DNA of 64,000 nt from Candidatus Omnitrophota bacterium (GCA_029571225.1 JAKPTF010000035.1:145925-209924), one strand, 5' to 3'. Shown: positions 28,576 through 46,351, counted from the stretch's first letter. Translations and numbers: made by a program. Notes: generated by a model from the sequence alone, not told the origin.

Positions 28576-28592
28576 TGGCTTCTTCCCCTTGT

Positions 28593-28720
28593 AAATAGAA
28601 AAGCCGAGTACCTTTTTTCGGTAACTCGGCTATCCTAAGATGGTTTCTCTGCATCCGGCAGAGTCAGGACCCGTGGCTTTGCGCCCCCCGATTACTCGAG
28701 GTTTGCCTTTATCGTTCAAG
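28593..28720 (-). promoter_or_regulatory. c-di-GMP-I (GEMM-I)-like riboswitch plus intrinsic terminator, leader of the giant gene (copy 1)
   Basis: Minus-strand RNA: GAUAAAGGCAAACCUCGA-GUAA-UCGGGGGGCGCAAAGCCACGGGUCC...GGAUAGCCGAGUUACCGAAAAAAGG. This matches the GEMM-I blocks of V. cholerae Vc2: GGCAAACC, a GNRA-capped hairpin, GACGCAAAGCC and UAGCGGGGUUACCGA. The terminator AGCCGAGUUACC...GGUACUCGGCU plus UUUUCUAUUU lies at 28593-28631. Confidence 0.8.
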
Positions 28721-28775
28721 TCTGACTTCAGAAACACATTTCTAAAAGATTATAAAAATCTAAATTTCCATCTCA

Positions 28776-28835
28776 AGTATATATAATAAACACGAGGTTG
28801 TCAAGATACAATAACTAACTTTTTTATCTGTTTAC
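28776..28835 (-). promoter_or_regulatory. Promoter of the giant gene with the conserved upstream box
   Basis: On the minus strand: box GTAAACAGATAAAAAAGTT (28817-28835), -35 TTGACA (28799-28804), a 17-nt spacer, and -10 TATACT (28776-28781). Confidence 0.65.
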
Positions 28836-28840
28836 AGCGA

Positions 28841-29137
28841 TTATCGATATTTGCGCATGTATTCGCGCATATATTCACGACGCTGATCTTTATGCTCGTT
28901 TTCGTAGGCCTTAATGTATTCTTTATTCGCCGCTTTCCAGAGCTGATTATACCTTCGCCTTTTATCCTGCCACGCAGGCTCCTGGCCAAGGCATTTGAAA
29001 TAATCAGGGTTCTTCAATCGCCACTGTTTCTGATTCAAAAGCTGGCGCTGTCGTTGGCACGCCGGGCTTGAGCATACCTGCTGGCTTGGCCTGTATTTAC
29101 TTGGCGAAAATTCGTTATTGCAGATTGAGCATTTCAT
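28841..29137 (-). CDS. Small basic Cys-rich (zinc-ribbon-like) protein, 98 aa
   Basis: Track ORF MKCSICNNEFSPSKYRPSQQVCSSPACQRQRQ... with CxxC...CxxxxC followed by a Lys/Arg/Tyr-rich tail. It ends 6 nt before the upstream box of the giant-gene promoter. Confidence 0.55.
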   Translation of the reverse strand: MKCSICNNEFSPSKYRPSQQVCSSPACQRQRQLLNQKQWRLKNPDYFKCLGQEPAWQDKRRRYNQLWKAANKEYIKAYENEHKDQRREYMREYMRKYR

Positions 29138-29196
29138 AGAACAAATCTAACATACGGCTGAGGCAAAGTCAAGACGCTGAGTATATATTTTCTTTA

Positions 29197-29259
29197 CCGT
29201 ATCATACTGTATCAAACAGTATCAAAAATCCTTGACATTTGTTGATTTTTATATATACT
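29197..29259 (+). promoter_or_regulatory. Promoter of the outer-membrane-factor gene with three 10-bp-phased direct repeats
   Basis: CCGTATCATA-CTGTATCAAA-CAGTATCAAA at 29197-29226, containing the palindrome TACTGT-N5-ACAGTA (29205-29221). Then -35 TTGACA 29232-29237, a 16-nt spacer, and -10 TATACT 29254-29259. Confidence 0.55.
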
Positions 29260-29300
29260 TATAAATGGTTCAATATCGCTACTCTATTCCATAGGAGATT

Positions 29301-31160
29301 ATGCGCAAAAATCTCTGGTTTTATATTTTTCTGTCGCTAATCCTGACCTTTGTTGTCTCTCCTGCTTCAAAAGCTCAATTCCCTGTTCACACTGACTACG
29401 CGCTTTTCATCCAGGAGCGGATCTATGAGAACCTCATCTATCCGCCTGACGCTTTTGTTCAAGGGCGCGAAGGCATTGTCACGCTGAACTTCACCATAGG
29501 CCAGGACGGATATTTAAAGAATATATTCGTCGCCGAGTCATCCGGGTTCCCATCTCTCGACGAGGGAGCTATTGCTGCTGTCAAAAGCGCAAGCCCCTAT
29601 CCTTTGCCGGAAGATTACGACGGCGAGGATGTCGAACTTGTCGTGCCTCTTGAATTCAAGATGGAAATGGCAGAGGAACCAGGACCGTTTGTCCCGCCTG
29701 AAGGATGGATGCCTGAAGAAGAACCCTCTGAACAACCGGTTCCTGAAAAGGCCCAACCTGTTGAAGAACAACCTGTTGAGCAAGCACCGAAATTCCTTAA
29801 AAAAATCAAAGAAGGCCCGTCCGCATCAGAGCAGGCAATGAAGGATTTCAAGGTCGTTTGGCCTGAGGAACTGTCGAAATTTATCGACCTTGCCATAAAG
29901 AACAATAAGCCGAGCCAGGTCGCCAAGAAAGAAGTCGATCTTGCAGAATTCAAGGTCAAAGAGGCAATGCGCAACCTTCTCCCGTCGGTGAAATTAAGCG
30001 GCGTGGCAACGGACGGCGAAACATACCACGTGCCGTATGAAGAGCACGAGTTTAAGGTTGAATTGAACCAGCCGATTTATTACGGCGGCAGGCTCATCGA
30101 TTCGATCGAACATGCCAGGGTTAATGCGCTTATTGCCAGAATGAATTTCGACCGCATGAAGTTCGATATCATACACAAAACCGAATCATCCTACTATAAC
30201 CTCATCGCCTCGCGCACGCACTGGAGATATAAAGAAGCTCTGCGCAATGAGGCACAGGAACTGCTGGACCGTATCACAAAGCTCTCTGATATAGGCATGA
30301 TAATCCCGCTTGAGCTCAAGAGCGCCCGGTCTTCATTTGAACAGATCGAATTCCAGCTTGCAAGCTTAAAGCAGGATATATACCTGGCGGAATTAACTTT
30401 TAAACAGGTTTTAAACAGCCAGGATGTCCCTTCCATAAGCCTTGAAGAACCCGAAATTGTCAAGCCAGATCTTGATCTGGATGAGCTGTTTCAAGTAGCT
30501 CTCAAACACAGAGCCGAGATACAAATCGGCGAATTAATGGTAAAATTCAGCAAATATGCTAAAAAGATCGAATTAGACAAGGATAATTTCAACGTTGATC
30601 TGGTTGGTTCATTAGGAACATATTCCGGTCATTATAAGACAGAGCCATGGAAGAACTCGACAAACTGGGCAGCAGGCGTCAAAGTCACCAAAATGCTCGG
30701 CGCAAGCACTTTAAAAAGCTCGTTTATAACTGAACGCAGCAGGCCGCGTTTTGGACAAACATCTCCGACAGCCTCAACATCGTTAAGCGGAGAACTTGGG
30801 CTGTTTGACAACATGGCTGCTATTTCAGCTCTGAAGAAGACCGATGTTGACCTTCAGAAGGCCATCAGCGACCTGAACGAGACGCGCAAAACCGTAACTT
30901 TCGAGGTCCAGGATGCTTTTCTGACGTATCAAAAGGCAATTTTACAACTTAACACAGCGTCAGCTGATATGGCTTTCCGAAGGAACCAGGCAGAGATCAC
31001 CAAAATCCGTGCTTCAGTTAATGACGCACCCCTCTCTTCTGCCATGGACTCGCTTTACAGCCTTGCGGATGCGCAGACAAAGTATTTCCAGGCCCTGGGA
31101 AATTATTTTGTCGCGCTCACCAACCTTAAAAAAGCCACAGGATACGGAATAAACATCTGA
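29301..31160 (+). CDS. TonB C-terminal-like domain fused to a TolC-family outer membrane efflux protein (619 aa)
   Basis: AGGAG SD and a signal peptide (MRKNLWFYIFLSLILTFVVSPASKA). YPPDAFVQGREGIVTLNFTIGQDGYLKNIFVAESSGFPSLDEGAIAAVKSASPYPLP is TonB_C-like. A Pro/Glu-rich linker follows, then coiled TolC/OEP-type repeats. Confidence 0.7.
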   Translation: MRKNLWFYIFLSLILTFVVSPASKAQFPVHTDYALFIQERIYENLIYPPDAFVQGREGIVTLNFTIGQDGYLKNIFVAESSGFPSLDEGAIAAVKSASPYPLPEDYDGEDVELVVPLEFKMEMAEEPGPFVPPEGWMPEEEPSEQPVPEKAQPVEEQPVEQAPKFLKKIKEGPSASEQAMKDFKVVWPEELSKFIDLAIKNNKPSQVAKKEVDLAEFKVKEAMRNLLPSVKLSGVATDGETYHVPYEEHEFKVELNQPIYYGGRLIDSIEHARVNALIARMNFDRMKFDIIHKTESSYYNLIASRTHWRYKEALRNEAQELLDRITKLSDIGMIIPLELKSARSSFEQIEFQLASLKQDIYLAELTFKQVLNSQDVPSISLEEPEIVKPDLDLDELFQVALKHRAEIQIGELMVKFSKYAKKIELDKDNFNVDLVGSLGTYSGHYKTEPWKNSTNWAAGVKVTKMLGASTLKSSFITERSRPRFGQTSPTASTSLSGELGLFDNMAAISALKKTDVDLQKAISDLNETRKTVTFEVQDAFLTYQKAILQLNTASADMAFRRNQAEITKIRASVNDAPLSSAMDSLYSLADAQTKYFQALGNYFVALTNLKKATGYGINI

Positions 31161-31167
31161 TTTTTCC

Positions 31168-31226
31168 GTTAACAGAAGCAAAAGTTTGCTTCCTGCCTTG
31201 AAATTTTCAAATTCATCACGTATACT
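31168..31226 (+). promoter_or_regulatory. Upstream box plus promoter (module copy 2)
   Basis: GTTAACAGAAGCAAAAGTT 31168-31186; -35 TTGAAA 31198-31203; 17-nt spacer; -10 TATACT 31221-31226. Confidence 0.65.
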
Positions 31227-31249
31227 TCTGGTGAAATATAATGATTTCT

Positions 31250-31378
31250 CCTTAATCGAAAAGCCAATCTCGTCGTAAGGCGGGTGCGGAAAGCCACGGG
31301 GTCAGGGGAAGGCATTGTTTTTTTATCCGACTAGCCGGGTTACCGAGGTAAGGACAAGGTAGCTCGGCATTTTAATTT
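31250..31378 (+). promoter_or_regulatory. c-di-GMP-I-like riboswitch plus terminator (copy 2)
   Basis: CCUUAAUCGAAAAGCCAAUCUCGUC-GUAA-GGCGGGUGCGGAAAGCCACGGGGUCAGG...CUAGCCGGGUUACCGAGGUAAGG. Terminator arms are GCCGGGUUACC 31334-31344 and GGUAGCUCGGC 31358-31368, followed by AUUUUAAUUU. Confidence 0.75.
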
Positions 31379-31390
31379 GATGGGGTCGGC

Positions 31391-32872
31391 ATGAAAATAG
31401 TTTTGCTTAAAACAAAAAAAATAACAGCCGCCGTTTTCTTCGCGGCGTTAACAGCATTGTTCGCGTCCGACTGCTTCGCTGCCCAAGAACCTGGATTATT
31501 TTCCATTCCCGTCTCCAAAAACGCTAACCAAGGGCCGGAATCATTTCAACCAATAACAAAGGCCGCCCAACCGTCAGCCGACTTTGGGAACGCGTTATTT
31601 AAGGATGAAAGCCCCGCTTTAATGTCATCGACACCGGTACCCGCATACGGTACCAGAGCGGCGCCGAAATCTTCTTCAGGGCCCGTGTCATTTCAGCAGC
31701 CAACGGGAACTTGGGCCACTGCGCCAAGGCTTGCGCCGGCCACTCAGAACGCAAAACAGAATAATGCGAGATTACCGAATCTGAAAACACCCGATGCGGA
31801 AAAAACCACGACCGAATATAAGCTAAAAGCCGCTCTTTCTCCGACGGAAAATAACGCCTCTGATATATGGCGCACAGAACAGAAAGTTTTCATCCAAGAC
31901 AATGATGCGCTGCAGCGGGCAGAAGAAGACCGGTCCGCGCCGCGTCGCACCAGGCAAAACAATACGCAGAAACCATTTGCGGCCTTGAAAAATCCCGAAA
32001 ACAGGCGGTGTAATCACGCAAAACAAGATGGCATGAAATATGTTCGTATCCGCGATATGGCCTTCGATGCATCCGCCAAGCAGGAAAGTAATGGCGTTGT
32101 CCACAGCCAAACGCGTTTATCGAAAGACCCTGCGTCCTTTGGAAAAAAGAATCTGGTAAAAAACGTGTGCAAGAATCAGCAAAATACCGCGGAAAACCTT
32201 TATCGAGCCGTTTCCGGCATCATGCCATTTCAAAAAAATTCCTTGATCGCTCAGGCCAAGGTATTAACTGCGCAGGATAATATCAACCCGCTGCTTCCTC
32301 CTCTGCCGCAGCCCATCGAACAGCAACCGGTCGATGTTCCTGAAAAATCAGAGACCTATAAGCAATCATCTATGGCCTCACGAAGCTCCGATGGCATTGT
32401 GCTGTATCCGGTCTATAAAAACCATATCAATCCTTCCGTTAATAATACAGGATTTTTGGAACAATTGTTACAGGAACCCATCAATTACTCAAAAACAGGC
32501 CTTTCTCCCCCGGGCAATGCCATTATATTGAATCCTCGCCATTTACTCACGAATATTCCTCGTTTCTTGTGCTCATCAGAAAGCAGTGATAAATCTCTTG
32601 AATATTCTTACAGTTTAAATTCAACCGTATCAGACAATCATAACCGTATCATAGACCCCCCCAAGAGGCTTCGGGAAGGCCTTTCCATTTGTGAAAATGT
32701 CCTTTCCGAGGCCTCTTTAAATTTCATTTATCGTGCAGCAGCATCAAGCACGATAAGGGCTGCATCTCACCCCCCCGAGGTGCAGCCCTCTTTTATTTTT
32801 TCACAGTTAAATGCAATTTTGGTTAACAGAAGCAATATTTTGTTATTCTGGCTTGAATTCCAGAAACTATAA
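31391..32872 (+). CDS. Secreted low-complexity protein, 493 aa (paralogue of 33052..34527); 3' end uncertain
   Basis: Signal peptide MKIVLLKTKKITAAVFFAALTALFASDCFA. Shares the C-terminal motif GF(L/I)..(I/V)NY..TGLSPP with the next gene. An intrinsic terminator lies inside the last 40 codons. Confidence 0.55.
   Translation: MKIVLLKTKKITAAVFFAALTALFASDCFAAQEPGLFSIPVSKNANQGPESFQPITKAAQPSADFGNALFKDESPALMSSTPVPAYGTRAAPKSSSGPVSFQQPTGTWATAPRLAPATQNAKQNNARLPNLKTPDAEKTTTEYKLKAALSPTENNASDIWRTEQKVFIQDNDALQRAEEDRSAPRRTRQNNTQKPFAALKNPENRRCNHAKQDGMKYVRIRDMAFDASAKQESNGVVHSQTRLSKDPASFGKKNLVKNVCKNQQNTAENLYRAVSGIMPFQKNSLIAQAKVLTAQDNINPLLPPLPQPIEQQPVDVPEKSETYKQSSMASRSSDGIVLYPVYKNHINPSVNNTGFLEQLLQEPINYSKTGLSPPGNAIILNPRHLLTNIPRFLCSSESSDKSLEYSYSLNSTVSDNHNRIIDPPKRLREGLSICENVLSEASLNFIYRAAASSTIRAASHPPEVQPSFIFSQLNAILVNRSNILLFWLEFQKL
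32756..32801 (+). terminator. Intrinsic terminator located inside the 3' end of ORF 31391..32872
   Basis: AGGGCTGCA 32756-32764 pairs with TGCAGCCCT 32781-32789, followed by CTTTTATTTTTT 32790-32801. Confidence 0.7.
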
Positions 32873-32880
32873 TGCATACT
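32822..32880 (+). promoter_or_regulatory. Upstream box plus promoter (module copy 3)
   Basis: GTTAACAGAAGCAATATTT 32822-32840; -35 TTGAAT 32853-32858; -10 CATACT 32875-32880. Confidence 0.55.
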
Positions 32881-32909
32881 TATAATGCAATACAATAGAT
32901 TTTGTTTGT

Positions 32910-33042
32910 CCTTATCGAAAAGCCTGCTCTCAGGAGCGGGAAAGCCACGGGGTCAGACAGAAAAAGGGTGCAGGATTTTGCTTTTTAAGGCCGACCGGGT
33001 TGCCGAAATAAGGAACTTTCGCAATCCGGATTTTTATTTTTT
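32910..33042 (+). promoter_or_regulatory. c-di-GMP-I-like riboswitch plus terminator (copy 3; non-GNRA P1 loop variant)
   Basis: CCUUAUCGAAAAGCCUGCUC-UCAG-GAGCGGGAAAGCCACGGGGUCAG...GACCGGGUUGCCGAAAUAAGG. Terminator arms are CCGGGUUGCCGAAA 32995-33008 and UUUCGCAAUCCGG 33017-33029, followed by AUUUUUAUUUUUU. Confidence 0.65.
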
Positions 33043-33051
33043 GAGGCTGGC

Positions 33052-34527
33052 GTGAAAAACCAAAGGGTCAAAAAAATCTCTGCTCTCTTCATTCTCGTAA
33101 GCGGCGCGCTTTTTATCGCATGCACGCATGACGTTTATGCTGCTAAGGACGACCTTAATACATCAACAGTGTCCGTGACGCCGAAAATTATCGGCTCATC
33201 GAACTCGATCATTCCGACCGTCAACACCCAAACAGGCATTACTTCTTCGCCGGGATTTGTATCCGTAGGATCTGCGGGCAGCTTAATGGCTGATCCCACA
33301 GCCGGCATCACGGCGAGCAAGCTGTCCGGTGCTCTTCATTCCTCGGTACAAGCATCTACCATTCCTCTGGTTTCATCCCCGGCAATAACGCCGGGCAAGG
33401 AATCCGGCGCTTTTGTGAACGTCGCGGTTGCCCCGGCAGTCTCGATATCAGCTATGCATACAGCGCCGCCTGCGGCATGGACTGCAACCCCGAAGACAAC
33501 CGTAAGCTTAAATCTTCACACGAACGCAAATCTGGCCGCTGCGCCAATTGACGCGAAAGCCTTATCAATAAATTGTATGTCTCCGGGCCTGCAGGCATCT
33601 ATTGCGCCGGTTGCTGCCGGCGCTGTCAACCAACCCCAGGTCAATATCGCGGCAACAGTCGCATCTCCTTTAAGAATCAACAGGAATGATCTTAATAAAG
33701 CTGTTCTTCCGCAAGCTGGAAGCCAGGAAATAAACATGTCTGCCAAAGAAAAGCTGGCCGCGAATAAATCCGGTGTTAAGCAGGACACACAGGCCAAAAA
33801 CACCCGGGGCGGTTTTAACGCCATGGCATCTCATGTAAAACAGACCTCAGCAGCAGCGCGTATGCTGGCAAAACAGACTCATTCGCTTACCCAAAAAACA
33901 GCGTCATCTGTGATCGATGGCTTTTATGCTGTAAAAAATCGCCTTTCCAAGGCAAAAACAACCGCATTGACGCAAATAAAATTCGCTGCCAATCTCAAGA
34001 GCAAGGCATATGAAAATGCAAGCGGCTGGATTAAAGGCATTATCCCCATTTTTAAAATGGCTATTCCCAATGAAGAACTGCCCTTATTGATGGACCTGTC
34101 TTTCATTGACAGGAATACCTTGCCTGCCGCCCATACGGCTGACAACAAGCAGGACCCTCTTTCTCCTCCGGTTCGCAAGACCGTCGCGGATATGGATGGC
34201 GGGGATCAGCTTCGTTTGAGCGCAACCGTATCACGGGCTGTTTTAGATCAGATCGACCCAATAAATTCTATCGGATTTATTGATACAATAAAGAAGAACG
34301 CGGTGAATTATGATAGGACCGGCCTTTCGCCTCCGGACACGGCATCCATCCATTCATCCGCTCTTCTTTCCGCATCGAATCGCTCCATTCGCATTTTTTC
34401 TGCGCGCCTTTTTCCCATTATTAATGCTCATCCTCTGTCCTTATTGGTCTCTGGGGGGATCAATTCAAAGGACAGAGGATTTTGTCTTTTTCAGAACTTT
34501 TCAACCAAAGGGGGATATTATGTTTAA
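33052..34527 (+). CDS. Secreted Ala/Ser/Thr-rich protein, 491 aa (GTG start); 3' end uncertain
   Basis: Signal peptide MKNQRVKKISALFILVSGALFIACTHDVYA. Carries the paralogous C-terminal motif SIGFIDTIKKNAVNYDRTGLSPP. A terminator lies inside the last ~30 codons. Confidence 0.55.
   Translation: MKNQRVKKISALFILVSGALFIACTHDVYAAKDDLNTSTVSVTPKIIGSSNSIIPTVNTQTGITSSPGFVSVGSAGSLMADPTAGITASKLSGALHSSVQASTIPLVSSPAITPGKESGAFVNVAVAPAVSISAMHTAPPAAWTATPKTTVSLNLHTNANLAAAPIDAKALSINCMSPGLQASIAPVAAGAVNQPQVNIAATVASPLRINRNDLNKAVLPQAGSQEINMSAKEKLAANKSGVKQDTQAKNTRGGFNAMASHVKQTSAAARMLAKQTHSLTQKTASSVIDGFYAVKNRLSKAKTTALTQIKFAANLKSKAYENASGWIKGIIPIFKMAIPNEELPLLMDLSFIDRNTLPAAHTADNKQDPLSPPVRKTVADMDGGDQLRLSATVSRAVLDQIDPINSIGFIDTIKKNAVNYDRTGLSPPDTASIHSSALLSASNRSIRIFSARLFPIINAHPLSLLVSGGINSKDRGFCLFQNFSTKGGYYV
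34430..34491 (+). terminator. Intrinsic terminator located inside the 3' end of ORF 33052..34527
   Basis: ATCCTCTGTCCT 34430-34441 pairs with AGGACAGAGGAT 34469-34480 (12 bp), followed by TTTGTCTTTTT 34481-34491. Confidence 0.7.
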
Positions 34528-34822
34528 CGGGGTCAGCGGGAGGTTGTGTATCAAGCGCATCGGTGTTTTTGGAGACGGGGCTGTTCTTGCCTGCGCCACG
34601 GAAGAAAGCACCCAAAAGAGGGGTCTATTTATCATCCTGGGGGACGGAAACAAATGCTACTTCAAAACCGGCTCAAGCCGCCAGTGGCAGCGCTTAAACA
34701 AGCATTCTGCGGAGATAGCGCTCCAGTCAATATGTCAGGCGGTTACACAGGGCCTTGAAGTATTTGACATAAACGGGAACTCAGACCATATTATTAACCG
34801 CAACATCTTAAAGGGAGGGAAC

Positions 34823-35713
34823 ATGTTTACGAAAACAGCACGTTTCGCAGCCGCAATGGTATTGGTCACAGCAATGACAATCGTGTCCATGCCGATCGGA
34901 ATAGCTCATGCTGAATCACTGCACTGGGGACAGCGCCAGCAGGAGAACATAATGCCCGCCAGCCCGGTGCACACCGGCGCAGTAGCCGGCAACGGCCAGG
35001 ATCTCGATGCGCTTATCGTAGCTGGCGGCAAGGCGCATACAGGGCTGGTTGTAAAAGCGCGTCATGATGATGCGGCGGTTGCCGAAGAAACAGGAAGCGA
35101 TCTGTCTGATGAAGCCCGTGTCAGAATATACGACGGCAACGGCAATTTTATCGGCTGGCAGGAAGTGGATATTGTCAGGGACGATGCAGGCAGAATCATC
35201 AAGCAGACGACCGTGACCTTTGACAAGGACGGCCACAGGATCAATTCCAGCATCAAGACATTTGAATATACGCTCGATGACAAAGGAAATGTCGCGTCCG
35301 TGAAGGTAACGCGCACAAAAGACGGGAAAGTCGTCTGGACTGCAGAACATACATTTACCCGCGATGAGAACGGGAAGGTCACTGAGCGGACGGCGACTTT
35401 CAAAGATGCCAACGGCAAGGTGATGTTTACTGCCGTTCAGACCTATACGCGCGATGACAATGGCCGCATCACTGAAAGCACTATTGAAAGAAAAGACGCC
35501 AAGGGCAAACTCCTTAGCAAAGACAGTATCAAATACACCTATGGTGAAGATGGCAAGATCAAAGAACGCACGCTGACACGGACCAACGCGCAGGGGAAAA
35601 CAATATTTGAATCGACCCGGACATTCAAGGACGGAGTCCTTCAAAAAGACCTAATCAAGCGTTTCAATGAAAAAGGAGATTTGGTCCGCAAAGAAATTGT
35701 CAATTATCACTAA
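34823..35713 (+). CDS. Secreted protein with YD/Rhs-like beta-hairpin repeats, 296 aa
   Basis: AGGGAGGG SD 3 nt before ATG 34823. Signal peptide MFTKTARFAAAMVLVTAMTIVSMPIGIAHA. Repeats such as FTRDENGKVTERT, YTRDDNGRITEST and YGEDGKIKERT. The track ORF (from 34310) is a 5' over-extension. An in-frame ATG at 34520 is a possible alternative start. Confidence 0.6.
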   Translation: MFTKTARFAAAMVLVTAMTIVSMPIGIAHAESLHWGQRQQENIMPASPVHTGAVAGNGQDLDALIVAGGKAHTGLVVKARHDDAAVAEETGSDLSDEARVRIYDGNGNFIGWQEVDIVRDDAGRIIKQTTVTFDKDGHRINSSIKTFEYTLDDKGNVASVKVTRTKDGKVVWTAEHTFTRDENGKVTERTATFKDANGKVMFTAVQTYTRDDNGRITESTIERKDAKGKLLSKDSIKYTYGEDGKIKERTLTRTNAQGKTIFESTRTFKDGVLQKDLIKRFNEKGDLVRKEIVNYH

Positions 35714-35729
35714 CAATAAGGAGGAAAAC

Positions 35730-38378
35730 ATGTTCACGCAAAAGTTCAGGACCATCGTAACACTGGTATTGCTGATAACCATGACGGCGGTCAGCATGCC
35801 GATGAATGTCGTTCAGGCAGAAACAACGCCGGCAGGCCAGCAGAACAGCACGGTCATGCCTGCGGCACGGATCAAACACCGGGACTTCATCCACCGCATA
35901 GTTCCGGGAAACGAAGCGGCTGCCCCAAAAAACACAGTCGGGGACGGCGAGCTCTCTGAGGATCCCCGCGTGCAGAAACCGGAAACAAAAAAATTATCGG
36001 CAGAAGAACAAAAAGAACTGAAAAAAATCTTCGGGGTAGCGCCGGTAACATCCAAAACGGTCACCCTCTGCGGCGGCACGACCGTTTCGTATTATGACAA
36101 AGACGGCAATCTCGTCGGCACATTCAAAAAGACGACCGGCACGCAATACGACATTCTTGGCGCGTATTATGACAAGAACGGCAAGTTGATCACGCGCGAG
36201 GGCACGGCATTGACGCCAGAACAACAGGCGGCGTTAAAAGAGATATTCGGCACAGCGCCGGCCTGGAGTGTCGAAGGACCGCACTGGATAACAACGTCGA
36301 TACCGCCGAGCTCAGGATACACGATCATGTATTATGACAAAGACGGCAATTTTCTCGGCGAGAAAAGGGTTTCGGATACCGGCTCCGGCGTTCATTCGGA
36401 GACGTATTACGACAAGGACGGCAAAAAGATCGACACGACAGCGAATGTCGAGATCAAACCCCCGGTTCGTCCGCCTGATACGGAAACAGACATCAAGGTC
36501 TGGACCCAGTATTACAAGGATTACGTCGCCTATATCAATAAATTGGACGACGTATCCATGAAGAAACAGGCATGGGAAAGCCTCGGCAATGACATCCTGA
36601 AGCTTTCCAGGGAACATCCGGAGCTTATTTCCGCCGGAGCCATTAACGCAGTGATGTCGGCCATGACTGCCGAGTTGAAGAAAATCTATCGCGATGACAG
36701 TTATAAATTGGATCTGTCAAATGCGCAGGCGTCAGTCGTGAAGGCTGCTTTAAACCTGGTCAAAAGCGATGCGTTCAAAGCAATGGACGACGCAACGCAG
36801 AGCGCCATAGGCCATTATTTCATGGCCCTCGGCGTTGAATTAACCTGGTTAAGCGCTAACAATAAGACCAACAGCGCCCTGTATCCCAAGATAGCGGAGT
36901 TCTTTAAGACGCTTCTGGAAAACGGCTCGAACCAGGTCAAGGCGCAGGCATTTTGCCAGCTTATGAACCTGTGGCGGATCGGCCACTGGGGATCGAAAGA
37001 AGGTAACCGGGACGAAGTCAATAAGATCCTCAAGCAGGCGCTTAATATCGAGGGAGGCATCCAGGGCCTTGTCAACAAATGGATAACCGGCCTCGATGAT
37101 GAATCCCTTGACGCCGACAGCCGGGGCAACATGGCCAACGCGCTTGCGCAGGCGATCTGGCACAGCGACGCGTTGAACGAGGCCAGCAACACGAAATTGT
37201 CTGATGCGGACCGGACGAAGATAGCCAACAAGCTCACGGCATTCGTCAAAGGCGTCAATGACGGCTCCATCAAGGTCTCGGCTGGAGTGCGCAACGGCAT
37301 GATCCATTGCATCGGCTGCGCGCTGTCCACGCTGTTTAACGAAGGCAAGGGCGCCACGGACTCGACCAAAGCGCTCACGAACGCCTATATCTCGTTTGCG
37401 CAGAAATCCCTGCTTCTGTCTGCGGATGAGGGCGGCTGCGTCACCATCCAGTCATCGGCAATCAATCTGCTGACGCATCTCAAGGATGTCGCAAAAGCAA
37501 AAGGACTTGAGGGCGTTGTTGAGAAATGCACAAATGTCCTTCTCGACAAGGATTTCGACCTCGAGGGTTTTGTCGATAAAGCGCGCAAAGAGATGAACGC
37601 AACGGCCAACGCGGACCATGCTGCGTTTGTCGCGCGGGCGCTGGCGAATATCGAAACAATCAACCTGGCCAATAACACAGGCAAGGTTGACGCCAAGATG
37701 GTCAAGGAAACCATAGCTGATATCAAGGCGTGGATCACGGTCCCGGAGCACCTGAAAGACATGCGCCACCGGGACTGGCAGAGAAGGCTCTATGACGCAC
37801 TGACAGCGCTTCTGAAACAGGCCTACAAAAAAGGCTCAACGCTCGGCGATGACAAGGCGATGCAGGAGAATATCGTCGCGATCTTCGGCACGATATCGGG
37901 CCTGAAGGATTCGCTTGTCAAGAAGTTCGCCACTGCCGATATGAACAGCCTTATCAAGCATCTCAAGTCCGAAGGCTTCAAGGACCTCGCTTACAAGATC
38001 GAGATGATCTCGTGCACGAGCTCCGAGGCGCTCATGAAAAAGGCGTGGGATTATTACAACGACAAAGACTACGCTGCGGCAAAGGCGTTCGCCCAGGAGT
38101 GTATCGACCGTTACGGCGAGGAAGCGCTCAAACAACAGGCGTCATTGAAGGATTTCGCGCCGAAAGGCCAGGAATCCAAATACTGGGCGCTCAACGACGT
38201 CGCAACAGCGTACTTCATCCTTGGCGAGATATACTCAAAGCAAAAGAACTATGAAAAGGCAAAAGAAGCATACAGGACAATCATCAACAAGTTCGGTTTT
38301 GCCCAGTGCTGGGATCCGCAAGGCTGGTATTGGAAAGTCGCAGATGCGGCAAAGAAAGCGCTCAAGGAGCTCCCATAA
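35730..38378 (+). CDS. Secreted repeat protein, 882 aa, with a C-terminal TPR-like domain shared with 43799..46324
   Basis: AAGGAGG SD before ATG 35730. Signal peptide MFTQKFRTIVTLVLLITMTAVSMPMNVVQA. YYDKDGN(L/F) repeats. The C-terminus reads ...QQASLKDFAPKGQESKYWALNDVATAYFILGEIY...FAQCWDPQGWYWKV. Confidence 0.65.
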   Translation: MFTQKFRTIVTLVLLITMTAVSMPMNVVQAETTPAGQQNSTVMPAARIKHRDFIHRIVPGNEAAAPKNTVGDGELSEDPRVQKPETKKLSAEEQKELKKIFGVAPVTSKTVTLCGGTTVSYYDKDGNLVGTFKKTTGTQYDILGAYYDKNGKLITREGTALTPEQQAALKEIFGTAPAWSVEGPHWITTSIPPSSGYTIMYYDKDGNFLGEKRVSDTGSGVHSETYYDKDGKKIDTTANVEIKPPVRPPDTETDIKVWTQYYKDYVAYINKLDDVSMKKQAWESLGNDILKLSREHPELISAGAINAVMSAMTAELKKIYRDDSYKLDLSNAQASVVKAALNLVKSDAFKAMDDATQSAIGHYFMALGVELTWLSANNKTNSALYPKIAEFFKTLLENGSNQVKAQAFCQLMNLWRIGHWGSKEGNRDEVNKILKQALNIEGGIQGLVNKWITGLDDESLDADSRGNMANALAQAIWHSDALNEASNTKLSDADRTKIANKLTAFVKGVNDGSIKVSAGVRNGMIHCIGCALSTLFNEGKGATDSTKALTNAYISFAQKSLLLSADEGGCVTIQSSAINLLTHLKDVAKAKGLEGVVEKCTNVLLDKDFDLEGFVDKARKEMNATANADHAAFVARALANIETINLANNTGKVDAKMVKETIADIKAWITVPEHLKDMRHRDWQRRLYDALTALLKQAYKKGSTLGDDKAMQENIVAIFGTISGLKDSLVKKFATADMNSLIKHLKSEGFKDLAYKIEMISCTSSEALMKKAWDYYNDKDYAAAKAFAQECIDRYGEEALKQQASLKDFAPKGQESKYWALNDVATAYFILGEIYSKQKNYEKAKEAYRTIINKFGFAQCWDPQGWYWKVADAAKKALKELP

Positions 38379-38432
38379 CCAAGACGCTTTAGCTATCTGT
38401 TTAGGCAGCAAGTAGTTACAAAACAATTCTTT
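38379..38432 (+). repeat. REP-like element R1
   Basis: CCAAGACGCTTTAGCTATCTGTTTAGGCAGCAAGTAGTTACAAAACAATTCTTT begins immediately after the stop codon at 38378. It is the inverted partner of 43422..43475. Confidence 0.7.
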
Positions 38433-38505
38433 TTGCACGAATTTAACAATCAAGGCGGGCTGGGCCCGTTAACCCCTTTTCGGGTTCAGCCCTGTCCTTG
38501 CTAAT

Positions 38506-38564
38506 GTTAACAGAAGCAAAAGTTGGGTTATACACCTTGAAATTCCATATATATAGGGTAAACT
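38506..38564 (+). promoter_or_regulatory. Upstream box plus promoter (module copy 4)
   Basis: GTTAACAGAAGCAAAAGTT 38506-38524; -35 TTGAAA 38537-38542; a weak -10 TAAACT 38559-38564. Confidence 0.5.
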
Positions 38565-38638
38565 TATTATGAAGCAAGCAGTTTCTTAGGGGGCTTTAAA
38601 AAGATCTGGGGTCAGGTCGAAAAGGGGGAAGAAATCAT

Positions 38639-38749
38639 CCTTATCGATAAAGCCTGCTGTCAACAGCAGGAAAGCCACGGATCTTGAAGAAGCTTTCAAG
38701 CAATAACCGGGTTGCCGAAATAAGGAATGGCAAACCGGTTTTTTATTTT
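38639..38749 (+). promoter_or_regulatory. c-di-GMP-I-like riboswitch plus terminator (copy 4; non-GNRA P1 loop variant)
   Basis: CCUUAUCGAUAAAGCCUGCUG-UCAA-CAGCAGGAAAGCCACGGAUCUUGAA...UUCAAGCAAUAACCGGGUUGCCGAAAUAAGG. Terminator arms are AACCGGGUUGCC 38705-38716 and GGCAAACCGGUU 38729-38740, followed by UUUUAUUUU. Confidence 0.65.
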
Positions 38750-38785
38750 ATGCGCGAAAGCATTTCCCATAACCCGAGGAGACAT

Positions 38786-41700
38786 ATGAAAACCTTTAAG
38801 AAATTGCTCGCAGTAACAATGGCAGCGTCGCTTGCGCTTCAGCCGGTGTTCGCCGGCAACGCCTTTGCTTCTATTGAAGGATTACTGGCTTCATACGGAG
38901 GAAGCATTCCGCCGTCCAGCGGCGGAGGCGAAAGCACCGGCTCGGAATCCGGCTCCACCCAGGGAACAGGCGGACGTACTTTCACTTCGCCATATTCGAG
39001 CGATTACGTCAAACAGCTTATCGCCGACTACAAGAGCGAGCACAGCTTTACGCCTGTTTCGTTCACTCCGGCATCCTATACGCCGATGTCGTTCAGCAGT
39101 TCGCCGCTTGCCGAGCGTTTCACACCCGCGGCAATAAGCACAACCCCTTTGTCGACGCGCTTCGGCACTGATCCTTTGACTAACTTCGGAACAACCGGCA
39201 TTGATACCACAAACCTTCTATCACGATTCAATACTGCCAGCTTCCCTACAACCTCCTTCGGCACGACCAATCTTTTGTCGAACTACAACGCCTCAAGCTT
39301 CGATACGACAAACCTCCTGTCGCGATTCACCTCGAACAACTTCGCTTCCACGAAGCTTTTGAACACCGCCGGATCTCAAACGCCGTCTTTGACGCTGACA
39401 AGCCAGCAGACGCCCCGTATTGCTTTAAACACCGTCAACACGAATAATCTGGCTACCGTAAACGTCGCCGCCAGCCAATACAGACAAGCCTCATGGGCCA
39501 CCGCGACCGTATTTACCAATACCTTTGACCTGAACAACGACCTCAAGGTCGATTCGAACGATATTGCGCAGATGAAAGATCTTAACGGCGATACTGCAAT
39601 AGACGCAAAAGACACAGCGCTGTTCAATAACATCATTAATTTCGACACCATCTCCGCCGCCCAGCAGATCATGACGGTCCAGCAGCTTGCGCCTGCCTAC
39701 AGCGCCGCACTGATCGGCACGCTTGTCTCCCAGGAGCAAACCGCAGCTGCCGTTACGATATACGATAACATTTCCGCGCAGAAAGCCGTTGCGATCGGCA
39801 ATGAGCTCGCAAAAACGGAGAACGGCCAGGCAGCTGCTGCGGAAATCCTGGCGACCATGGCCGGCACCATGAGCATGCGTGACCGCGCGGCAAGCATCAT
39901 CAACTCCATGGCTCCCGCTTCAGCAGCGAGCGTCCTGGCGCGCATGCCGACAACTGCCTCCATTACGATCGTCAAGAACGATAATACAACCAATGCTGGC
40001 GCGATCCTCAAAGAACTGTCAAAACTCCAGGGCGGCGCAAAGATCGCCGCGGCGATCCTGACTAACATGGCAGGGTCTGTCCAATATATCGACCGCGCCA
40101 GCTCCATCCTCAATGATATGGAAGCTTCCGCTGCGGCGAATATCGTCAGGGAAATGGATAAATCCGCTGCCGCAGCGATCATCAGGAACGGGAATATGAC
40201 CGTTGCAAGCGCGGCCAAGATCTTCAATGAGCTCGCAAAAACAAGCTCGGACAACACCGGCATCAACATCATCAGTGCCCTGCTCAATGTCAAACAGACA
40301 GCGGCGCAGAGCCTCACCAACGCAAAGATGGCGTCCATTTTCAGCGCCATGGAGCCCGCGGCGGCAGCCGGTTATTTAATGGCATGCGAGGGGCTGCGCA
40401 GCGTCGTCAACATCCCCGCGGTGATCCTGGGCAACGGCAAGATGAGCACAGAGCAGGCAATCAAAATAGTCAATGAAATGGCCAACACGGCGGCAGGTGC
40501 CTCGCTTGCTGCATCGACGCTGATGGAGGTATATTCCAATGCGCCGACACAGGCAAAGGCAACAGCCATATTGAAAGGGCTGTCTTCAAGCGCCCAGACC
40601 GCGGTCAAACAGGCACTCGGGACCGCGAATACCAACAAGATACTCGGCACGACCTCAACCGCTACAACGACATCGACGACGAATCAGGCCAGTACAACGA
40701 CTTCTACGACGACTACCTCAACCACAGCTGCGACAACCGCAGGGACCACCTATACATTGTCGCAGATCGCAGGTAAAACCATCCTGCCCGGCACGATTAT
40801 TGACGACGGCACGAATAAATACGTTGCGACCCAGCAGTTCGCCGCCGGCGCGAACGGATCGATCCCCGAAACGATCAGATTTAACAAAGTCGGGGGCCTC
40901 ACCGGAGAGCATTTTATTTACAGCGGCGGAGCTTTTACCCAGGTGACATTCGTCAACGGCAGTTCGTATACCGCAGCTGACGGAACAAAATATACCGCCC
41001 TCTCTTCTTTCACGCTCGACGGCGGGAAGCTGCCGAAGGATGCGCTTTTAAAAGACTCAAGCGGCAAGGTCTATAAGACTGACGCCGCGGGCGCGATCGG
41101 CAGCGCGGTTACGGTCTATGCAGCTACAGGCGCCGCAGGAACGAAGATAGCCGCAGGTTCGGTCGTGCTTGTGGATGGGAAATATTACGTCACGACAAAG
41201 GAAGTTACTTATACGAGCGCCGGTAAACTGCCGGTTGGCGAGGCATATAAGAACGGCTGGGTCAATTATATGATGGACCCTCGCGGCGCCATGCGGGCGG
41301 CAGGATATAACGATACGACCGAGGTCATTAAGGACATGCAGACGGAAGCGACGCTGCAGAAATGCCGTGCGGCAGACGAAACGTTCCCGGATGGCGGCAT
41401 CACGATATTCTGGACTAATGAAGAAGCAATACCGGTCCAGGACCTTAACCTGTATGTGCCCGGCTGGGACCTGCGCATGCTCATCACCGCCGATTTTGAC
41501 AATGACGGCGATGTGGAAACGCAGGATTGGGATATGGACCCTGCCATGGTCAATACGCTCGGGCGTTCCATAGACCTGGACATGCCGGCTGAGCTCGACG
41601 GCAAAACGGTCACTGTAGCTTTTTACGTCGTTGACGCGAAGGGCAACCCATTAATAACGACGACGGATGCCCAGACAGGGAAAACGACCTGGGCCTTCGG

Positions 41701-43423
41701 CACAGCGAAAGATACGGCGTATGTGTTCGGCGCAGGCGTGCCGAACCTGCCCGGAACGGCGATCACCTTTACCGTAGACCGCGACCCGTCAAAGGGCGAG
41801 CAACTGCCTCAGGTCACCGGATACAAGGTCAGCGGCGGAAATTTAACCCTGCAGTTCGCGTCGGAGTTCCACCCTTCTTCTTTTACGGCATTCTATGTTG
41901 TGGTAAACGGGAAATATACGCAGATCTCGGATTTCAAATATTTTCTCTCTGACGATCTGCGCACGATGACTATCCCGGTGAGCGCATTTGGCATCAGCAT
42001 CGGCTCCGGCGATAAGGTCCAGATCGTTGCCAAGGAATGGACCGCAGGCATGACCTTGCTGCAGACAGTCATCCCGGGAAAAACAACCCCGACGACACCA
42101 ACTACGCCGACATCAATCAAGGTCGGCGATTCCGTCACCATCGGCAATAAGAATTACGTTGCCAAGACCGCGTTCACCTACAATACCGACGGCACTATCC
42201 CTGCTAACGTCGTATTGAACGACGCACAGGGCAGGCAGTTTACCACCACTGCCACCGGTATGGACCAGAACAGTTATCTGGCAGGCGATCCTATCAAGAT
42301 CAATAATGTGGATTACACAGTCACCACTGCTTTCTTCTACAACGCCCAGGGCAAGATCCCCCAGGGCACCAAGTTCACGGGCGCTGATAACAAGATCTAC
42401 GTCGCTGACGCCACTGGAAGCCTTAAATTGGAGACATCTTCTCAACCCGTACAGGTAAACGTTGGGGATCCCACGGTGTTTGATGGAAAGACATACTATT
42501 TTCAATCAGCTTTCACCTCGACCGGCAAAATCCCCAACGGCATACAGCTTAAGGACGATGAGGGCAGACTGTTCACCGTTACAGCGGACGGCCTCCAGCA
42601 GAACAGTTTTCTCGTCGGCGATCCCATCAAGATCAATAATGTGGATTACACAGTCACCACTGCTTTCTTCTACAACGCCCAGGGCAAGATCCCCCAGGGC
42701 ACCAAGTTCACGGGCGCCGATAATAAGATATACGTCGCTGACGCCACTGGCGCTCTGAAGCTTCAAACAAACCCAACCAACCAGACAGTGACGCTGACTG
42801 ATGGAACGGTTCTGACAGCTACAACAAATTATACTCCGGCGGCTAATGGGCAAATCCCTGCGGGAGTTGAGTTTACAGATCAGAAAGGACACACGTTCAT
42901 ATCAACAAGCAATGGCTCGTTTAGGCAAATAGGATTCAAAGCCGGCGATACCATCGAACTCACTGACGGCACAATCCTCGCTGCTTTGCAGGATTACACG
43001 GTGACCGGCGATAATATGCCTGCTAATGTCAAGTTTACCGATACCCAGGGCCATACGTTTATTACGACTACTGACGGCATGTTCAGGCAGATCGGGTTCA
43101 AGGCAGGCGATACGCTCGAGCTCACTGACGGCACCATCCTCACTGCTTTGCAGGATTACACGGTGACCGGCGATGACATGCCCTCAAACATCAAGTTCAA
43201 AGACGCAGCTGGCAGGCAATACATTACCACTGATGATGGATTCCGGCAGCTTTCGTACAAGGCAGGGGACCAAATTGAGCTGGTCGGTGGCACGAAATTA
43301 ACCTCCTCTTCTGACTTTACTGTTACTTCAACTGGAGACTTCCCTGCAGGCATAGAATTCACTGATAGCCAGAATCAAAAGTGGGTTACAACAGAAGATG
43401 GCAGCTTTAGAAAAGTCATATAA
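38786..43423 (+). CDS. Large secreted repeat protein, 1,545 aa
   Basis: GAGGAG SD before ATG 38786, with signal peptide MKTFKKLLAVTMAASLALQPVFAGNAFA. The track start at 38684 overlaps the riboswitch terminator. Contains a dockerin-like EF-hand pair DLNNDLKVDSND...DLNGDTAIDAKD (~39524-39645). Also contains Ala-rich helical repeats (~39700-40400, MgtE_N-like, low confidence), a Thr-rich linker, and ~13 tandem ~55-58-aa repeats through to the C-terminus. Confidence 0.7.
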   Translation: MKTFKKLLAVTMAASLALQPVFAGNAFASIEGLLASYGGSIPPSSGGGESTGSESGSTQGTGGRTFTSPYSSDYVKQLIADYKSEHSFTPVSFTPASYTPMSFSSSPLAERFTPAAISTTPLSTRFGTDPLTNFGTTGIDTTNLLSRFNTASFPTTSFGTTNLLSNYNASSFDTTNLLSRFTSNNFASTKLLNTAGSQTPSLTLTSQQTPRIALNTVNTNNLATVNVAASQYRQASWATATVFTNTFDLNNDLKVDSNDIAQMKDLNGDTAIDAKDTALFNNIINFDTISAAQQIMTVQQLAPAYSAALIGTLVSQEQTAAAVTIYDNISAQKAVAIGNELAKTENGQAAAAEILATMAGTMSMRDRAASIINSMAPASAASVLARMPTTASITIVKNDNTTNAGAILKELSKLQGGAKIAAAILTNMAGSVQYIDRASSILNDMEASAAANIVREMDKSAAAAIIRNGNMTVASAAKIFNELAKTSSDNTGINIISALLNVKQTAAQSLTNAKMASIFSAMEPAAAAGYLMACEGLRSVVNIPAVILGNGKMSTEQAIKIVNEMANTAAGASLAASTLMEVYSNAPTQAKATAILKGLSSSAQTAVKQALGTANTNKILGTTSTATTTSTTNQASTTTSTTTTSTTAATTAGTTYTLSQIAGKTILPGTIIDDGTNKYVATQQFAAGANGSIPETIRFNKVGGLTGEHFIYSGGAFTQVTFVNGSSYTAADGTKYTALSSFTLDGGKLPKDALLKDSSGKVYKTDAAGAIGSAVTVYAATGAAGTKIAAGSVVLVDGKYYVTTKEVTYTSAGKLPVGEAYKNGWVNYMMDPRGAMRAAGYNDTTEVIKDMQTEATLQKCRAADETFPDGGITIFWTNEEAIPVQDLNLYVPGWDLRMLITADFDNDGDVETQDWDMDPAMVNTLGRSIDLDMPAELDGKTVTVAFYVVDAKGNPLITTTDAQTGKTTWAFGTAKDTAYVFGAGVPNLPGTAITFTVDRDPSKGEQLPQVTGYKVSGGNLTLQFASEFHPSSFTAFYVVVNGKYTQISDFKYFLSDDLRTMTIPVSAFGISIGSGDKVQIVAKEWTAGMTLLQTVIPGKTTPTTPTTPTSIKVGDSVTIGNKNYVAKTAFTYNTDGTIPANVVLNDAQGRQFTTTATGMDQNSYLAGDPIKINNVDYTVTTAFFYNAQGKIPQGTKFTGADNKIYVADATGSLKLETSSQPVQVNVGDPTVFDGKTYYFQSAFTSTGKIPNGIQLKDDEGRLFTVTADGLQQNSFLVGDPIKINNVDYTVTTAFFYNAQGKIPQGTKFTGADNKIYVADATGALKLQTNPTNQTVTLTDGTVLTATTNYTPAANGQIPAGVEFTDQKGHTFISTSNGSFRQIGFKAGDTIELTDGTILAALQDYTVTGDNMPANVKFTDTQGHTFITTTDGMFRQIGFKAGDTLELTDGTILTALQDYTVTGDDMPSNIKFKDAAGRQYITTDDGFRQLSYKAGDQIELVGGTKLTSSSDFTVTSTGDFPAGIEFTDSQNQKWVTTEDGSFRKVI
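42287..42750 (+). repeat. Near-identical intragenic duplication (131 bp twice, offset 333 bp)
   Basis: 42287-42417 and 42620-42750 are about 97% identical. Both encode DPIKINNVDYTVTTAFFYNAQGKIPQGTKFTGADNKIYVADATG. The few differences I saw are synonymous third-position changes. Confidence 0.85.
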
Positions 43424-43475
43424 AGAATTTATTTGTAACTTATTGCTGATAAAATAGATAGCTAAAGCGTCTTCA
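43422..43475 (-). repeat. REP-like element R2 (inverted copy of R1)
   Basis: The reverse complement reads TGAAGACGCTTTAGCTATCTATTTTATCAGCAATAAGTTACAAATAAATTCTTT. It overlaps the last 2 nt of the stop codon (43421-43423) of the 1,545-aa gene. Confidence 0.7.
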
Positions 43476-43480
43476 TTAAT

Positions 43481-43539
43481 GTTAAAGCAAGCAAAAGTTA
43501 GATTTTGAGCTTGTTTTCTCACCGTTTGCCGTGTATACT
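43481..43539 (+). promoter_or_regulatory. Upstream box plus promoter (module copy 5)
   Basis: GTTAAAGCAAGCAAAAGTT 43481-43499; -35 TTGTTT 43511-43516; 17-nt spacer; -10 TATACT 43534-43539. Confidence 0.55.
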
Positions 43540-43605
43540 TATAATGAAATCGGAACAAAGCTTAATTTTTTTCGCTCTTTAATTAGCACTTTTATAAAGA
43601 TTTAG

Positions 43606-43753
43606 TCTTATCGATAATCGCCAAACCCATCGTAAGGTGGGGACGGAAAGCCACGGATCGAGTAAGAATAATCATCGCAGACTTTCTCTCTGCATTCGAT
43701 AGCCGGGTTGCCGAAATAAGCAGTAATATTTCGCAACTCGGTTTTTTGTTTTT
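43606..43753 (+). promoter_or_regulatory. c-di-GMP-I-like riboswitch plus terminator (copy 5)
   Basis: UCUUAUCGAUAAUCGCCAAACCCAUC-GUAA-GGUGGGGACGGAAAGCCACGGAUCGAG...UUCGAUAGCCGGGUUGCCGAAAUAAG. Terminator arms are CCGGGUUGCCGAAAUA 43703-43718 and UAUUUCGCAACUCGG 43727-43741, followed by UUUUUUGUUUUU. Confidence 0.75.
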
Positions 43754-46324: not shown

Positions 46325-46351
46325 AAAGGGGAAATCTCTAAGGAGGGAATC

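Follow-up and report, generated by a model that had tools for sequence, protein, structure and literature searches.

The stretch of DNA considered here—64,000 nucleotides from a Candidatus Omnitrophota bacterium (GCA_029571225.1 JAKPTF010000035.1:145925-209924), 'the window' in what follows—contains the start of a giant gene, a divergent TolC-like gene and a run of genes for signal-peptide-bearing proteins. Five leaders resembling class I riboswitches for cyclic di-GMP (c-di-GMP-I, or GEMM-I) lie among them within 15 kb, RS1 on the minus strand in front of the giant gene and RS2 to RS5 on the plus strand. The units concerned, each given with its open reading frames (ORFs) and protein lengths in residues, are as follows:

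1-28575, minus strand: giant ORF behind RS1, ATG at 28575, at least 9,525 residues, cut by the window start.
29301-31160, plus strand: TolC-like gene (TonB_C + OEP), divergent from the giant gene; the conserved synteny anchor.
31391-32872, plus strand: RS2 gene, 493 residues, Sec-type signal peptide, no known family.
33052-38378, plus strand: RS3 operon of 33052-34527 (491 residues), 34520-35713 (397) and 35730-38378 (882, C-terminal part TPR-like); gene calls taken from the identical contig L001.
38786-43423, plus strand: RS4 gene, 1,545 residues, signal peptide MKTFKKLLAVTMAASLALQPVFA, only weak MgtE_N-like matches.
43799-47563, plus strand: RS5 operon of 43799-46324 (841 residues) and 46352-47563 (403), both with signal peptides.

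An earlier note on this DNA, made by a model from the sequence alone, had assigned one riboswitch to the giant gene and one to each large secreted-protein gene. Five transcription units are indeed headed in this way (the giant gene; 31391; 33052 with 34520 and 35730; 38786; 43799 with 46352), but not every large gene has a copy of its own. All four of the units behind RS2-RS5 encode proteins with Sec-type signal peptides, as read by eye; the C-terminal domain of the 841-residue protein is paralogous to that of the 882/903-residue protein, and a strong terminator follows the RS5 operon at 47582-47606.

Working with Rfam, whose gathering-threshold scan took in the whole 64-kb window and whose E-value scan covered 27500-45000, we obtained clan matches at all five sites that the note had proposed, with E-values down to 1e-13; the five leader intervals it gave are correct, each being composed of an aptamer, a terminator and a U-tract. 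Both Rfam families involved belong to clan CL00126, and beyond the five elements the E-value scan returned no further match. The aptamers and their scores, with the gathering score abbreviated to GA, are:

28616-28716, minus strand: RS1 aptamer; RF03167 64.3 bits against a GA of 59; canonical P2, GUAA tetraloop.
31253-31347, plus strand: RS2 aptamer; RF01051 51.3 bits against a GA of 35, RF03167 51.7 bits; canonical P2, GUAA tetraloop.
32913-33008, plus strand: RS3 aptamer; RF03167 25.3 bits, E = 0.029, below GA; short P2.
38643-38720, plus strand: RS4 aptamer; RF03167 29.5 bits, E = 0.0018, below GA; short P2.
43610-43716, plus strand: RS5 aptamer; RF03167 61.7 bits against a GA of 59; canonical P2, GUAA tetraloop.

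The covariance-model check suggested in the note thus divides the copies: three of the five (RS1, RS2 and RS5) exceed curated thresholds and are c-di-GMP-I aptamers by those models, and the remaining two fall below them, their assignment to the class being supported by the sub-threshold matches together with orthologues in related genomes. A covariance model that we made from 15 sequences (R1) gives 101.2 bits for RS1, 65 for RS3 and 66.6 for RS4; searched against the window and 16 loci it yields 34 matches, many of them outside the training set, with the window contributing the five elements only. No sixth riboswitch, for instance before the TolC-like gene or the genes for resistance-nodulation-division (RND) pumps further downstream, is found by R1 in the 64-kb window.

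The three sequence blocks that the note described as common to the leaders are legible as AAAG(G/C)C, CG(C/G)AAAGCCACGG and CCGGGUU(A/G)CCGA, and the stem pairs it listed are present as written (CCUCGA/UCGGGG, CUCGUC/GGCGGG, CCCAUC/GGUGGG, UGCUC/GAGCG and UGCUG/CAGCA). Its helices are correctly drawn but named one step out of register: what it called the 'P1 hairpin' is P2 of the Vibrio cholerae Vc2 aptamer, and its 'P2 hairpin' is P3.

Covariation, which the note had also claimed, is borne out for the P1, P2 and P3 helices by compensatory changes both within the window and across species. In an alignment of 30 distinct sequences, fitted to the model and to that extent favouring the structure, paired cells amount to 94.9% as against 73.6% in shuffles, both-sided changes occur at 14 of the 19 pairs, and the covariation score of 0.489 compares with 0.156 when shuffled (reached in 0 of 500 shuffles) and with 0.085 or less when the partners are slid. 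An analysis by MAFFT and RNAalifold agrees, with double changes at 11 of 19 pairs. The GGC/GCC swap singled out in the note is a true compensatory exchange of G-C for C-G at the P2 closing pair (GGC...CGC versus GCC...CGG); the pair is CG 8 times and GC 6 times in the MAFFT/RNAalifold analysis, and CG 18 and GC 9 times among the 30 distinct sequences.

P2 comes in two forms. In RS1, RS2 and RS5 it has the canonical build of closing pairs, an AAA/GA internal loop, a 6-bp stem and a GNRA loop (GUAA), an arrangement kept in nearly all giant-gene leaders. In RS3 and RS4 it is an unbroken 7-bp hairpin (CCUGCUC-UCAG-GAGCGGG and CCUGCUG-UCAA-CAGCAGG, respectively) with no GNRA tetraloop, and it is because P2 is here a plain hairpin without internal loop or tetraloop that these two copies score below threshold. 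The short P2 also stands before accessory genes in three related loci (L004, L005 and L010), with longer unbroken P2 hairpins in L012 and others; its stems vary and yet remain fully paired (CCUGCUA/UAGCAGG, CCCGUUC/GAACGGG, CCCCGC/GCGGGG, CCCCUC/GAGGGG). The RS4 orthologue at 19263-19339 of L004 rises above the RF01051 GA (36.9 against 35 bits). To judge by these sequences, RS3 and RS4 are in our view not wrecks but a subtype maintained without the tetraloop, whose ligand binding is a prediction. Tetraloop-less 'type 2' GEMM RNAs were reportedly described by Sudarsan et al. in 2008.

Aligned to the Rfam consensus, all five copies carry canonical equivalents of G20, A47 and C92 of Vc2, whose contacts in that aptamer have been described (PMC5888326). 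The G20 equivalent is the unpaired G preceding the P2 closing pair, and its invariance, as proposed in the note, holds in 5 of 5; the A47 equivalent is the A just after the closing pair (CG[C/G]-A-AAGCC); and the C92 equivalent is the unpaired C ahead of the P1 3' strand (UU[A/G]-C-CGA). In a table of 50 distinct related aptamers, AAA stands ahead of GCC (A47 equivalent = A) in every one, and G is found at the G20 equivalent, along with A47 and C92, in 49. 

Two other pocket assignments were considered. RF03167 (c-di-GMP-I-GGC), a model in which P1 is covered and a long insert in P3 is allowed, scores best for RS1 and RS5 and would by its name suggest a GGC-variant pocket, a reading that we rejected. 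Its consensus reads CGCGAAgCc where that of RF01051 reads CGCAAAgCc, that is, G rather than A at the A47 position, to which we take the label 'GGC' to refer on the strength of these two consensus lines; as all five window copies and 50 of 50 relatives have A there, their pockets are canonical and not of the GGC kind. Identity as a receptor for cyclic AMP-GMP (c-AMP-GMP; GEMM-Ib) needs A at the G20 equivalent, which is G in 5 of 5 window copies. As a separate observation, the aptamer of an accessory gene in a relative (L007 3472-3579, plus strand) passes Rfam at 69.9 bits and does have A at this position (AAAACC), the change typical of GEMM-Ib RNAs selective for cyclic GMP-AMP (cGAMP); it is a lone case among the relatives tabulated.

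Immediately downstream of, and partly within, each aptamer lies an intrinsic terminator. All five were missed by a simple terminator scan, on account of loops longer than 8 nt, and were detected by folding:

28603-28630, minus strand: RS1 terminator hairpin, with U-tract 28593-28602; segment folds at -20.7 kcal/mol, tail UUUUCUAUUU.
31334-31368, plus strand: RS2 terminator, U-rich tail to 31378; segment folds at -21.3 kcal/mol.
32995-33029, plus strand: RS3 terminator, U-tract to 33042; segment folds at -17.0 kcal/mol.
38706-38739, plus strand: RS4 terminator, U-tract to 38750; segment folds at -17.9 kcal/mol.
43702-43742, plus strand: RS5 terminator, U-tract to 43753; segment folds at -20.0 kcal/mol.

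In each of the five the 5' arm of the terminator begins at AGCCGGGUU of the aptamer and crosses both the C92 equivalent and the P1 3' strand—for RS1 the arm is the aptamer 3' strand GCCGAGUUACC—and the same overlap is present in 28 of 29 related matches. Since this arm is the P3/P1 3' strand of the aptamer, aptamer and terminator are mutually exclusive, and the shared strand predicts antitermination in the 'ligand-ON' sense. The A/G polymorphism of UU(A/G)CC is mirrored by U/C in the terminator 3' arm. P1 can be extended by CCUUAU/AUAAGG, with covarying versions UCCUAAAU/AUUUAGGA and CUUAAG/CUUAAG (matched strands pair at a mean of -5.6 kcal/mol, mismatched ones at -4.0), and the 3' strand of the extension falls in the terminator loop. 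Start codons lie 8-46 nt past the U-tracts, with ribosome-binding sites outside the aptamer. As a folding model this is the standard anatomy of ligand-ON antitermination, the direction being one that we infer from structure.

The arrangement is conserved in relatives. Homologues of the TolC-like protein are named as Candidatus Omnitrophota or Omnitrophica, and a scan of GTDB species genomes with this anchor protein gave 15 Omnitrophota loci, six of which (L004, L005, L007, L009, L015 and L016) have Rfam clan matches at the syntenic position, divergent from the anchor gene and before a long minus-strand ORF; the riboswitch keeps this place across Omnitrophota genomes at 37-87% identity of the anchor protein. 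The giant ORF itself begins with MYNWRKKLWFKVVAFTMIGVFLSSDFGWAARNDYR, and its first 35 residues (M-x-N-W-R-x-K-x-W-x-K...G-V-F-x-F-S-E-V-T-W-A-A-R) are conserved in long ORFs adjoining the anchor gene at other loci. A metagenome scan with an alignment of this N-terminus returned 38 loci; counting matches of at least 60 bits to the model as strong, a strong one lies directly upstream on the same strand in 30, with weak matches (18-26 bits) in 7 and none in 1. Of 20 distinct leaders tested 16 pass the Rfam GA, the 4 that fail being those of the weak group.

The weak and variant giant-gene leaders match no Rfam family at E<=1. Several diverged elements—L008 5040-5144 (minus strand), L006 820-915 (minus strand) and L057/L058/L062/L064 at ~2839-2948 (plus strand)—keep AAGCC-P2-AAAGCC(A/G)CGG, CCGGGCUU and an overlapping terminator, and are without the P1 CG/CG pairs and the C92-equivalent C; going by their sequences, they could be decayed copies or a variant with an altered pocket. 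The leader at L014 8690-8810 (minus strand) has no P2 hairpin, repeats AGCCACGG three times and keeps its terminator.

Each riboswitch also appears to have its own promoter, marked by a shared sequence box:

28776-28835, minus strand: RS1 promoter; box GTAAACAGATAAAAAAGTT at 28817-28835, -35 TTGACA at 28799-28804, -10 TATACT at 28776-28781.
31168-31226, plus strand: RS2 promoter; box GTTAACAGAAGCAAAAGTT at 31168-31186, TTGAAA-17-TATACT at 31198-31226.
32822-32840, plus strand: RS3 promoter box, GTTAACAGAAGCAATATTT, within the 3'-terminal part of the ORF before it.
38506-38564, plus strand: RS4 promoter; box GTTAACAGAAGCAAAAGTT at 38506-38524, TTGAAA-16-TAAACT at 38537-38564.
43481-43499, plus strand: RS5 promoter box, GTTAAAGCAAGCAAAAGTT, with 3 mismatches to the consensus.

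The consensus box (GTTAACAGAAGCAAAAGTT) sits ~10 nt upstream of the -35 hexamer at every riboswitch promoter and, within the window and related Omnitrophota loci, is confined to these promoters; a weaker version at 29215-29230 accompanies the promoter of the TolC-like gene (TTGACA-16-TATACT), a gene for which the R1 search gives no riboswitch. The box is present, too, ahead of homologues of the giant gene that have a decayed (L012 7169-7187) or an altered riboswitch (L014 8939-8957). From its sequence and placement it is probably a transcription-factor site or an UP-like element, and would then be a second input to the regulon. Nearby, at 28841-29137 (minus strand), is a gene for a basic, Cys-rich protein of 98 residues (CxxC...C...C) with no family match, whose place right before the giant-gene promoter is kept in relatives (98 residues in L030, 111 in L032); as pure speculation, it may be named as a candidate for a regulator acting on the box.

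Building on the observed aptamer identity, covariation, terminator overlap and conservation before giant-gene orthologues, we put at roughly 70% the probability that the five leaders are class I c-di-GMP riboswitches with their own promoters that act as transcriptional ON switches, the ligand, the direction and the physiological role being our interpretation. In the ligand-free state, the aptamer 3' strand—the P3 3' arm CCGGGUU, the C92-equivalent C, CG of the P1 3' strand and the AUAAGG extension—would pair downstream to form the intrinsic terminator, and polymerase would halt ahead of the start codon; c-di-GMP bound at the P1/P2/P3 junction would keep that strand in the aptamer, so that no terminator forms and transcription reads through. 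At high c-di-GMP the five terminators would then be released together, co-inducing the giant membrane/surface protein and four operons for signal-peptide proteins, and the short P2 of RS3 and RS4 would probably confer another affinity or other kinetics, giving graded thresholds. By analogy, such co-induction fits both the part of c-di-GMP in attachment and the role in adhesion or predation proposed for giant proteins, c-di-GMP generally promoting attachment to surfaces (PMC6366702); the module would serve to attach to a host or prey cell or to attack it.

Several points weigh against this reading. RS3 and RS4 are under the Rfam gathering thresholds and are without the tetraloop that aids P2-P3 docking in Vc2; the window shows no canonical diguanylate cyclase, its sole GGDEF-like protein having GGDDF; and a review (PMC6366702) warns that the direction in which a c-di-GMP riboswitch regulates in one species cannot be carried over to another. 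In addition, a diverged element stands in ~20% of the leaders of orthologous giant genes and one leader is decayed (L012 7020-7090, minus strand, with only GAAAAGCCACGGGGCC left and both the 3' half and the terminator gone), so riboswitch control is not universal. The weakness of RS3 and RS4 could mean that RS1, RS2 and RS5 work and these two are decayed non-binders with constitutive or leaky terminators: they score 25.3 and 29.5 bits, under both Rfam thresholds, with neither GNRA tetraloop nor P2 internal loop, and Clostridioides difficile has 5 non-functional members among its 16 predicted c-di-GMP riboswitches (PMC6366702). We consider this unlikely, though it deserves to be taken seriously, as the short P2 recurs before accessory genes in L004, L005, L010 and L012 with differing stems and perfect pairing, the junction blocks, C92 equivalent, P1 and overlapping terminator of RS3 and RS4 are intact, the RS4 orthologue in L004 passes the RF01051 GA, and a terminator that is always active could hardly be maintained ahead of an operon of three conserved genes.

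Recognition of some other cyclic dinucleotide by these aptamers, 3',3'-cGAMP for example, is improbable too. One substitution in the pocket is known to be enough for a GEMM-I scaffold to change ligand, and one relative (L007 3472-3579) has A at G20, yet the equivalent is G, with A47 and C92, in all window copies and in 49 of 50 relatives. Somewhat less probable again is an OFF switch or an action on translation, the downstream hairpins being unrelated terminators or attenuators: class I riboswitches are OFF in C. difficile and do not use termination in V. cholerae (PMC6366702), but here the terminator 5' arm is the aptamer P3/P1 3' strand in 5 of 5 copies, making the folds exclusive, and the start codons lie past the U-tracts with ribosome-binding sites that are not in the aptamer. 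That the likeness is due to chance or to repeats, a duplicated regulatory cassette without RNA function, we discount almost entirely; promoter box, aptamer and terminator are indeed common to the leaders as one cassette, but the Rfam E-values and the compensatory changes in the window and across species stand against it, and the element is conserved where flanking sequence has diverged.

Taking the preferred interpretation, namely c-di-GMP-gated antitermination at all five leaders, a close structural relative is Vc2 (RF01051), which shares the P1/P2/P3 three-helix junction, the conserved blocks and the G20/A47/C92 equivalents, as well as the GNRA loop on P2 in RS1, RS2 and RS5; RS3 and RS4 differ from it in their plain short P2. 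The V. cholerae examples act without termination, whereas here every copy has a predicted terminator-based ON platform, in a host of the phylum Omnitrophota. Class I Bc2 of Bacillus thuringiensis is a read-through ON switch before cap, a gene for a collagen adhesion protein (PMC6366702), though it serves a single gene in a Gram-positive organism as against five switches in 15 kb and a target family of up to ~54,000 codons. The C. difficile regulon (12 class I and 4 class II) likewise uses many riboswitches for one ligand to coordinate surface proteins and behaviour, but its functional class I members are all OFF and dispersed, where those described here are all predicted ON, clustered and joined by a common promoter box.

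In the Lap system (LapA/LapD/LapG; FrhA/CraA in V. cholerae, PMC6890996) c-di-GMP also decides the display of a very large surface protein, and a TolC-like outer-membrane gene is nearby at our locus as well; Lap control, however, is post-translational, by way of proteolysis, and the control predicted here is of transcription elongation by RNA. We saw no LapD or LapG homologue at this locus. With published Omnitrophota giant genes (West-Roberts et al. 2023; Nielsen and Lui 2026) the present gene shares its phylum, an ORF that is very long although cut by the window (an orthologue being called at 54,154 residues), several hydrophobic segments, a stretch with a weak likeness to C39 peptidases and nearby proteins related to c-di-GMP, its context being a divergent TolC/TonB_C gene and signal-peptide proteins rather than the type II/IV secretion locus of the published cases. 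West-Roberts et al. describe giant proteins with many membrane-spanning regions and a SecA DEAD domain of divergent sequence, PilZ genes downstream of giant genes, and GGDEF domains in giant proteins; riboswitches or cis-regulatory RNA are nowhere mentioned in either of these preprints. The note's statement that such control of a giant gene had gone unreported accordingly stands as far as the literature searched contains no contrary report, an absence which is not proof, and has to be tempered by the PilZ and GGDEF findings at giant genes and by the Bc2/cap pair. The RNA class, the mechanism and the adhesin-gene precedents are known, and what appears to be new is the conserved link to Omnitrophota giant genes.

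The riboswitch mechanism as such will not surprise specialists; its interest lies in the genes it precedes. Omnitrophota giant genes are among the longest known, and a predicted riboswitch is the first testable clue to their regulation, one of a known ligand class and right before the start codon, so providing a cultivation-free hypothesis in which c-di-GMP gates expression. A ~160-kb mRNA needs tens of minutes to make at ordinary bacterial elongation rates, which would make an early checkpoint economically sensible; if the reading is right, commitment to such an mRNA is decided within its first 150 nt. More tentatively, and at somewhat short of even odds, we propose that c-di-GMP antitermination is the clade-wide master ON switch for a module of giant proteins (up to ~54,000 residues) and secreted accessory proteins, in which the two P2 types would set thresholds, the box would be a second input and the Rfam-negative leaders may be a new variant class for another ligand. 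In practical terms, riboswitch, conserved N-terminus and promoter box are markers by which giant-gene starts and their regulon can be found in fragmented metagenomes.

Turning to the giant protein, an orthologue with the same N-terminus in L032 (ENA ERZ27257456 k141_570614, a 914-kb contig; 1-9235, minus strand) is called at 54,154 residues; its homologous ATG lies ~35 nt past the riboswitch terminator, and because the call begins at 8558 and the conserved N-terminus at 9235, the protein would be ~226 residues longer than called. The L031 orthologue is called at 14,531 residues and is apparently cut by the contig end. For the accessory proteins and the giant ORF, Pfam and NCBIfam scans gave no family above threshold, with weak hints of Peptidase_C39, dockerin/EF-hand, MgtE_N and TPR; in the 9,525 available residues of the giant ORF no Pfam family is found at E<=0.001. 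Residues 725-799 (window ~26180-26400, minus strand) are weakly Peptidase_C39-like (E 0.0016, 18.7 bits against a cutoff of 22); motifs with Cys and His can be made out there by eye, and the L033 orthologue is also weakly marked as PF03412. Residues 900-1300 (~24700-25900, minus strand) contain ~98-residue tandem repeats with DSNGDGKQDAxDVLFEMNKANQYF, whose DxNxDGKxD motif resembles a dockerin/EF-hand calcium loop, all Pfam matches to it being sub-threshold. A crude hydropathy scan finds 12 hydrophobic segments, clustered at residues 6,550-7,700, the C-terminal part of the protein lying outside the window.

Elsewhere in the cluster, a strong terminator-like hairpin (13 bp, 8 GC, T-run) at 32756-32789 (plus strand) is situated inside the 3' end of ORF 31391-32872, and the RS3 promoter overlaps the final 50 nt of the same ORF; its real stop may be earlier, or coding and regulatory sequence may overlap. 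After the riboswitch cluster come two large RND (AcrB-family) transporter genes and an HlyD-type membrane-fusion gene (48478-57056, plus strand), which lie behind the terminator at 47582-47606, have a separate promoter at 47635-47663 and no riboswitch in the R1 search. Further on, three proteins are encoded at 58051-61796 (plus strand), one with a FIST domain, one a histidine kinase and the third a response regulator; the last has a GGDEF-like domain, matched by Pfam over just its first half and with the signature GGDDF, and is unlikely to be a standard diguanylate cyclase. Within 57104-58004 (minus strand) a transposase gene of the IS200-like Y1 kind adjoins a tRNA gene at 57930-58004, and a second tRNA (61845-61915) abuts the ORF for glutaminyl-tRNA synthetase.

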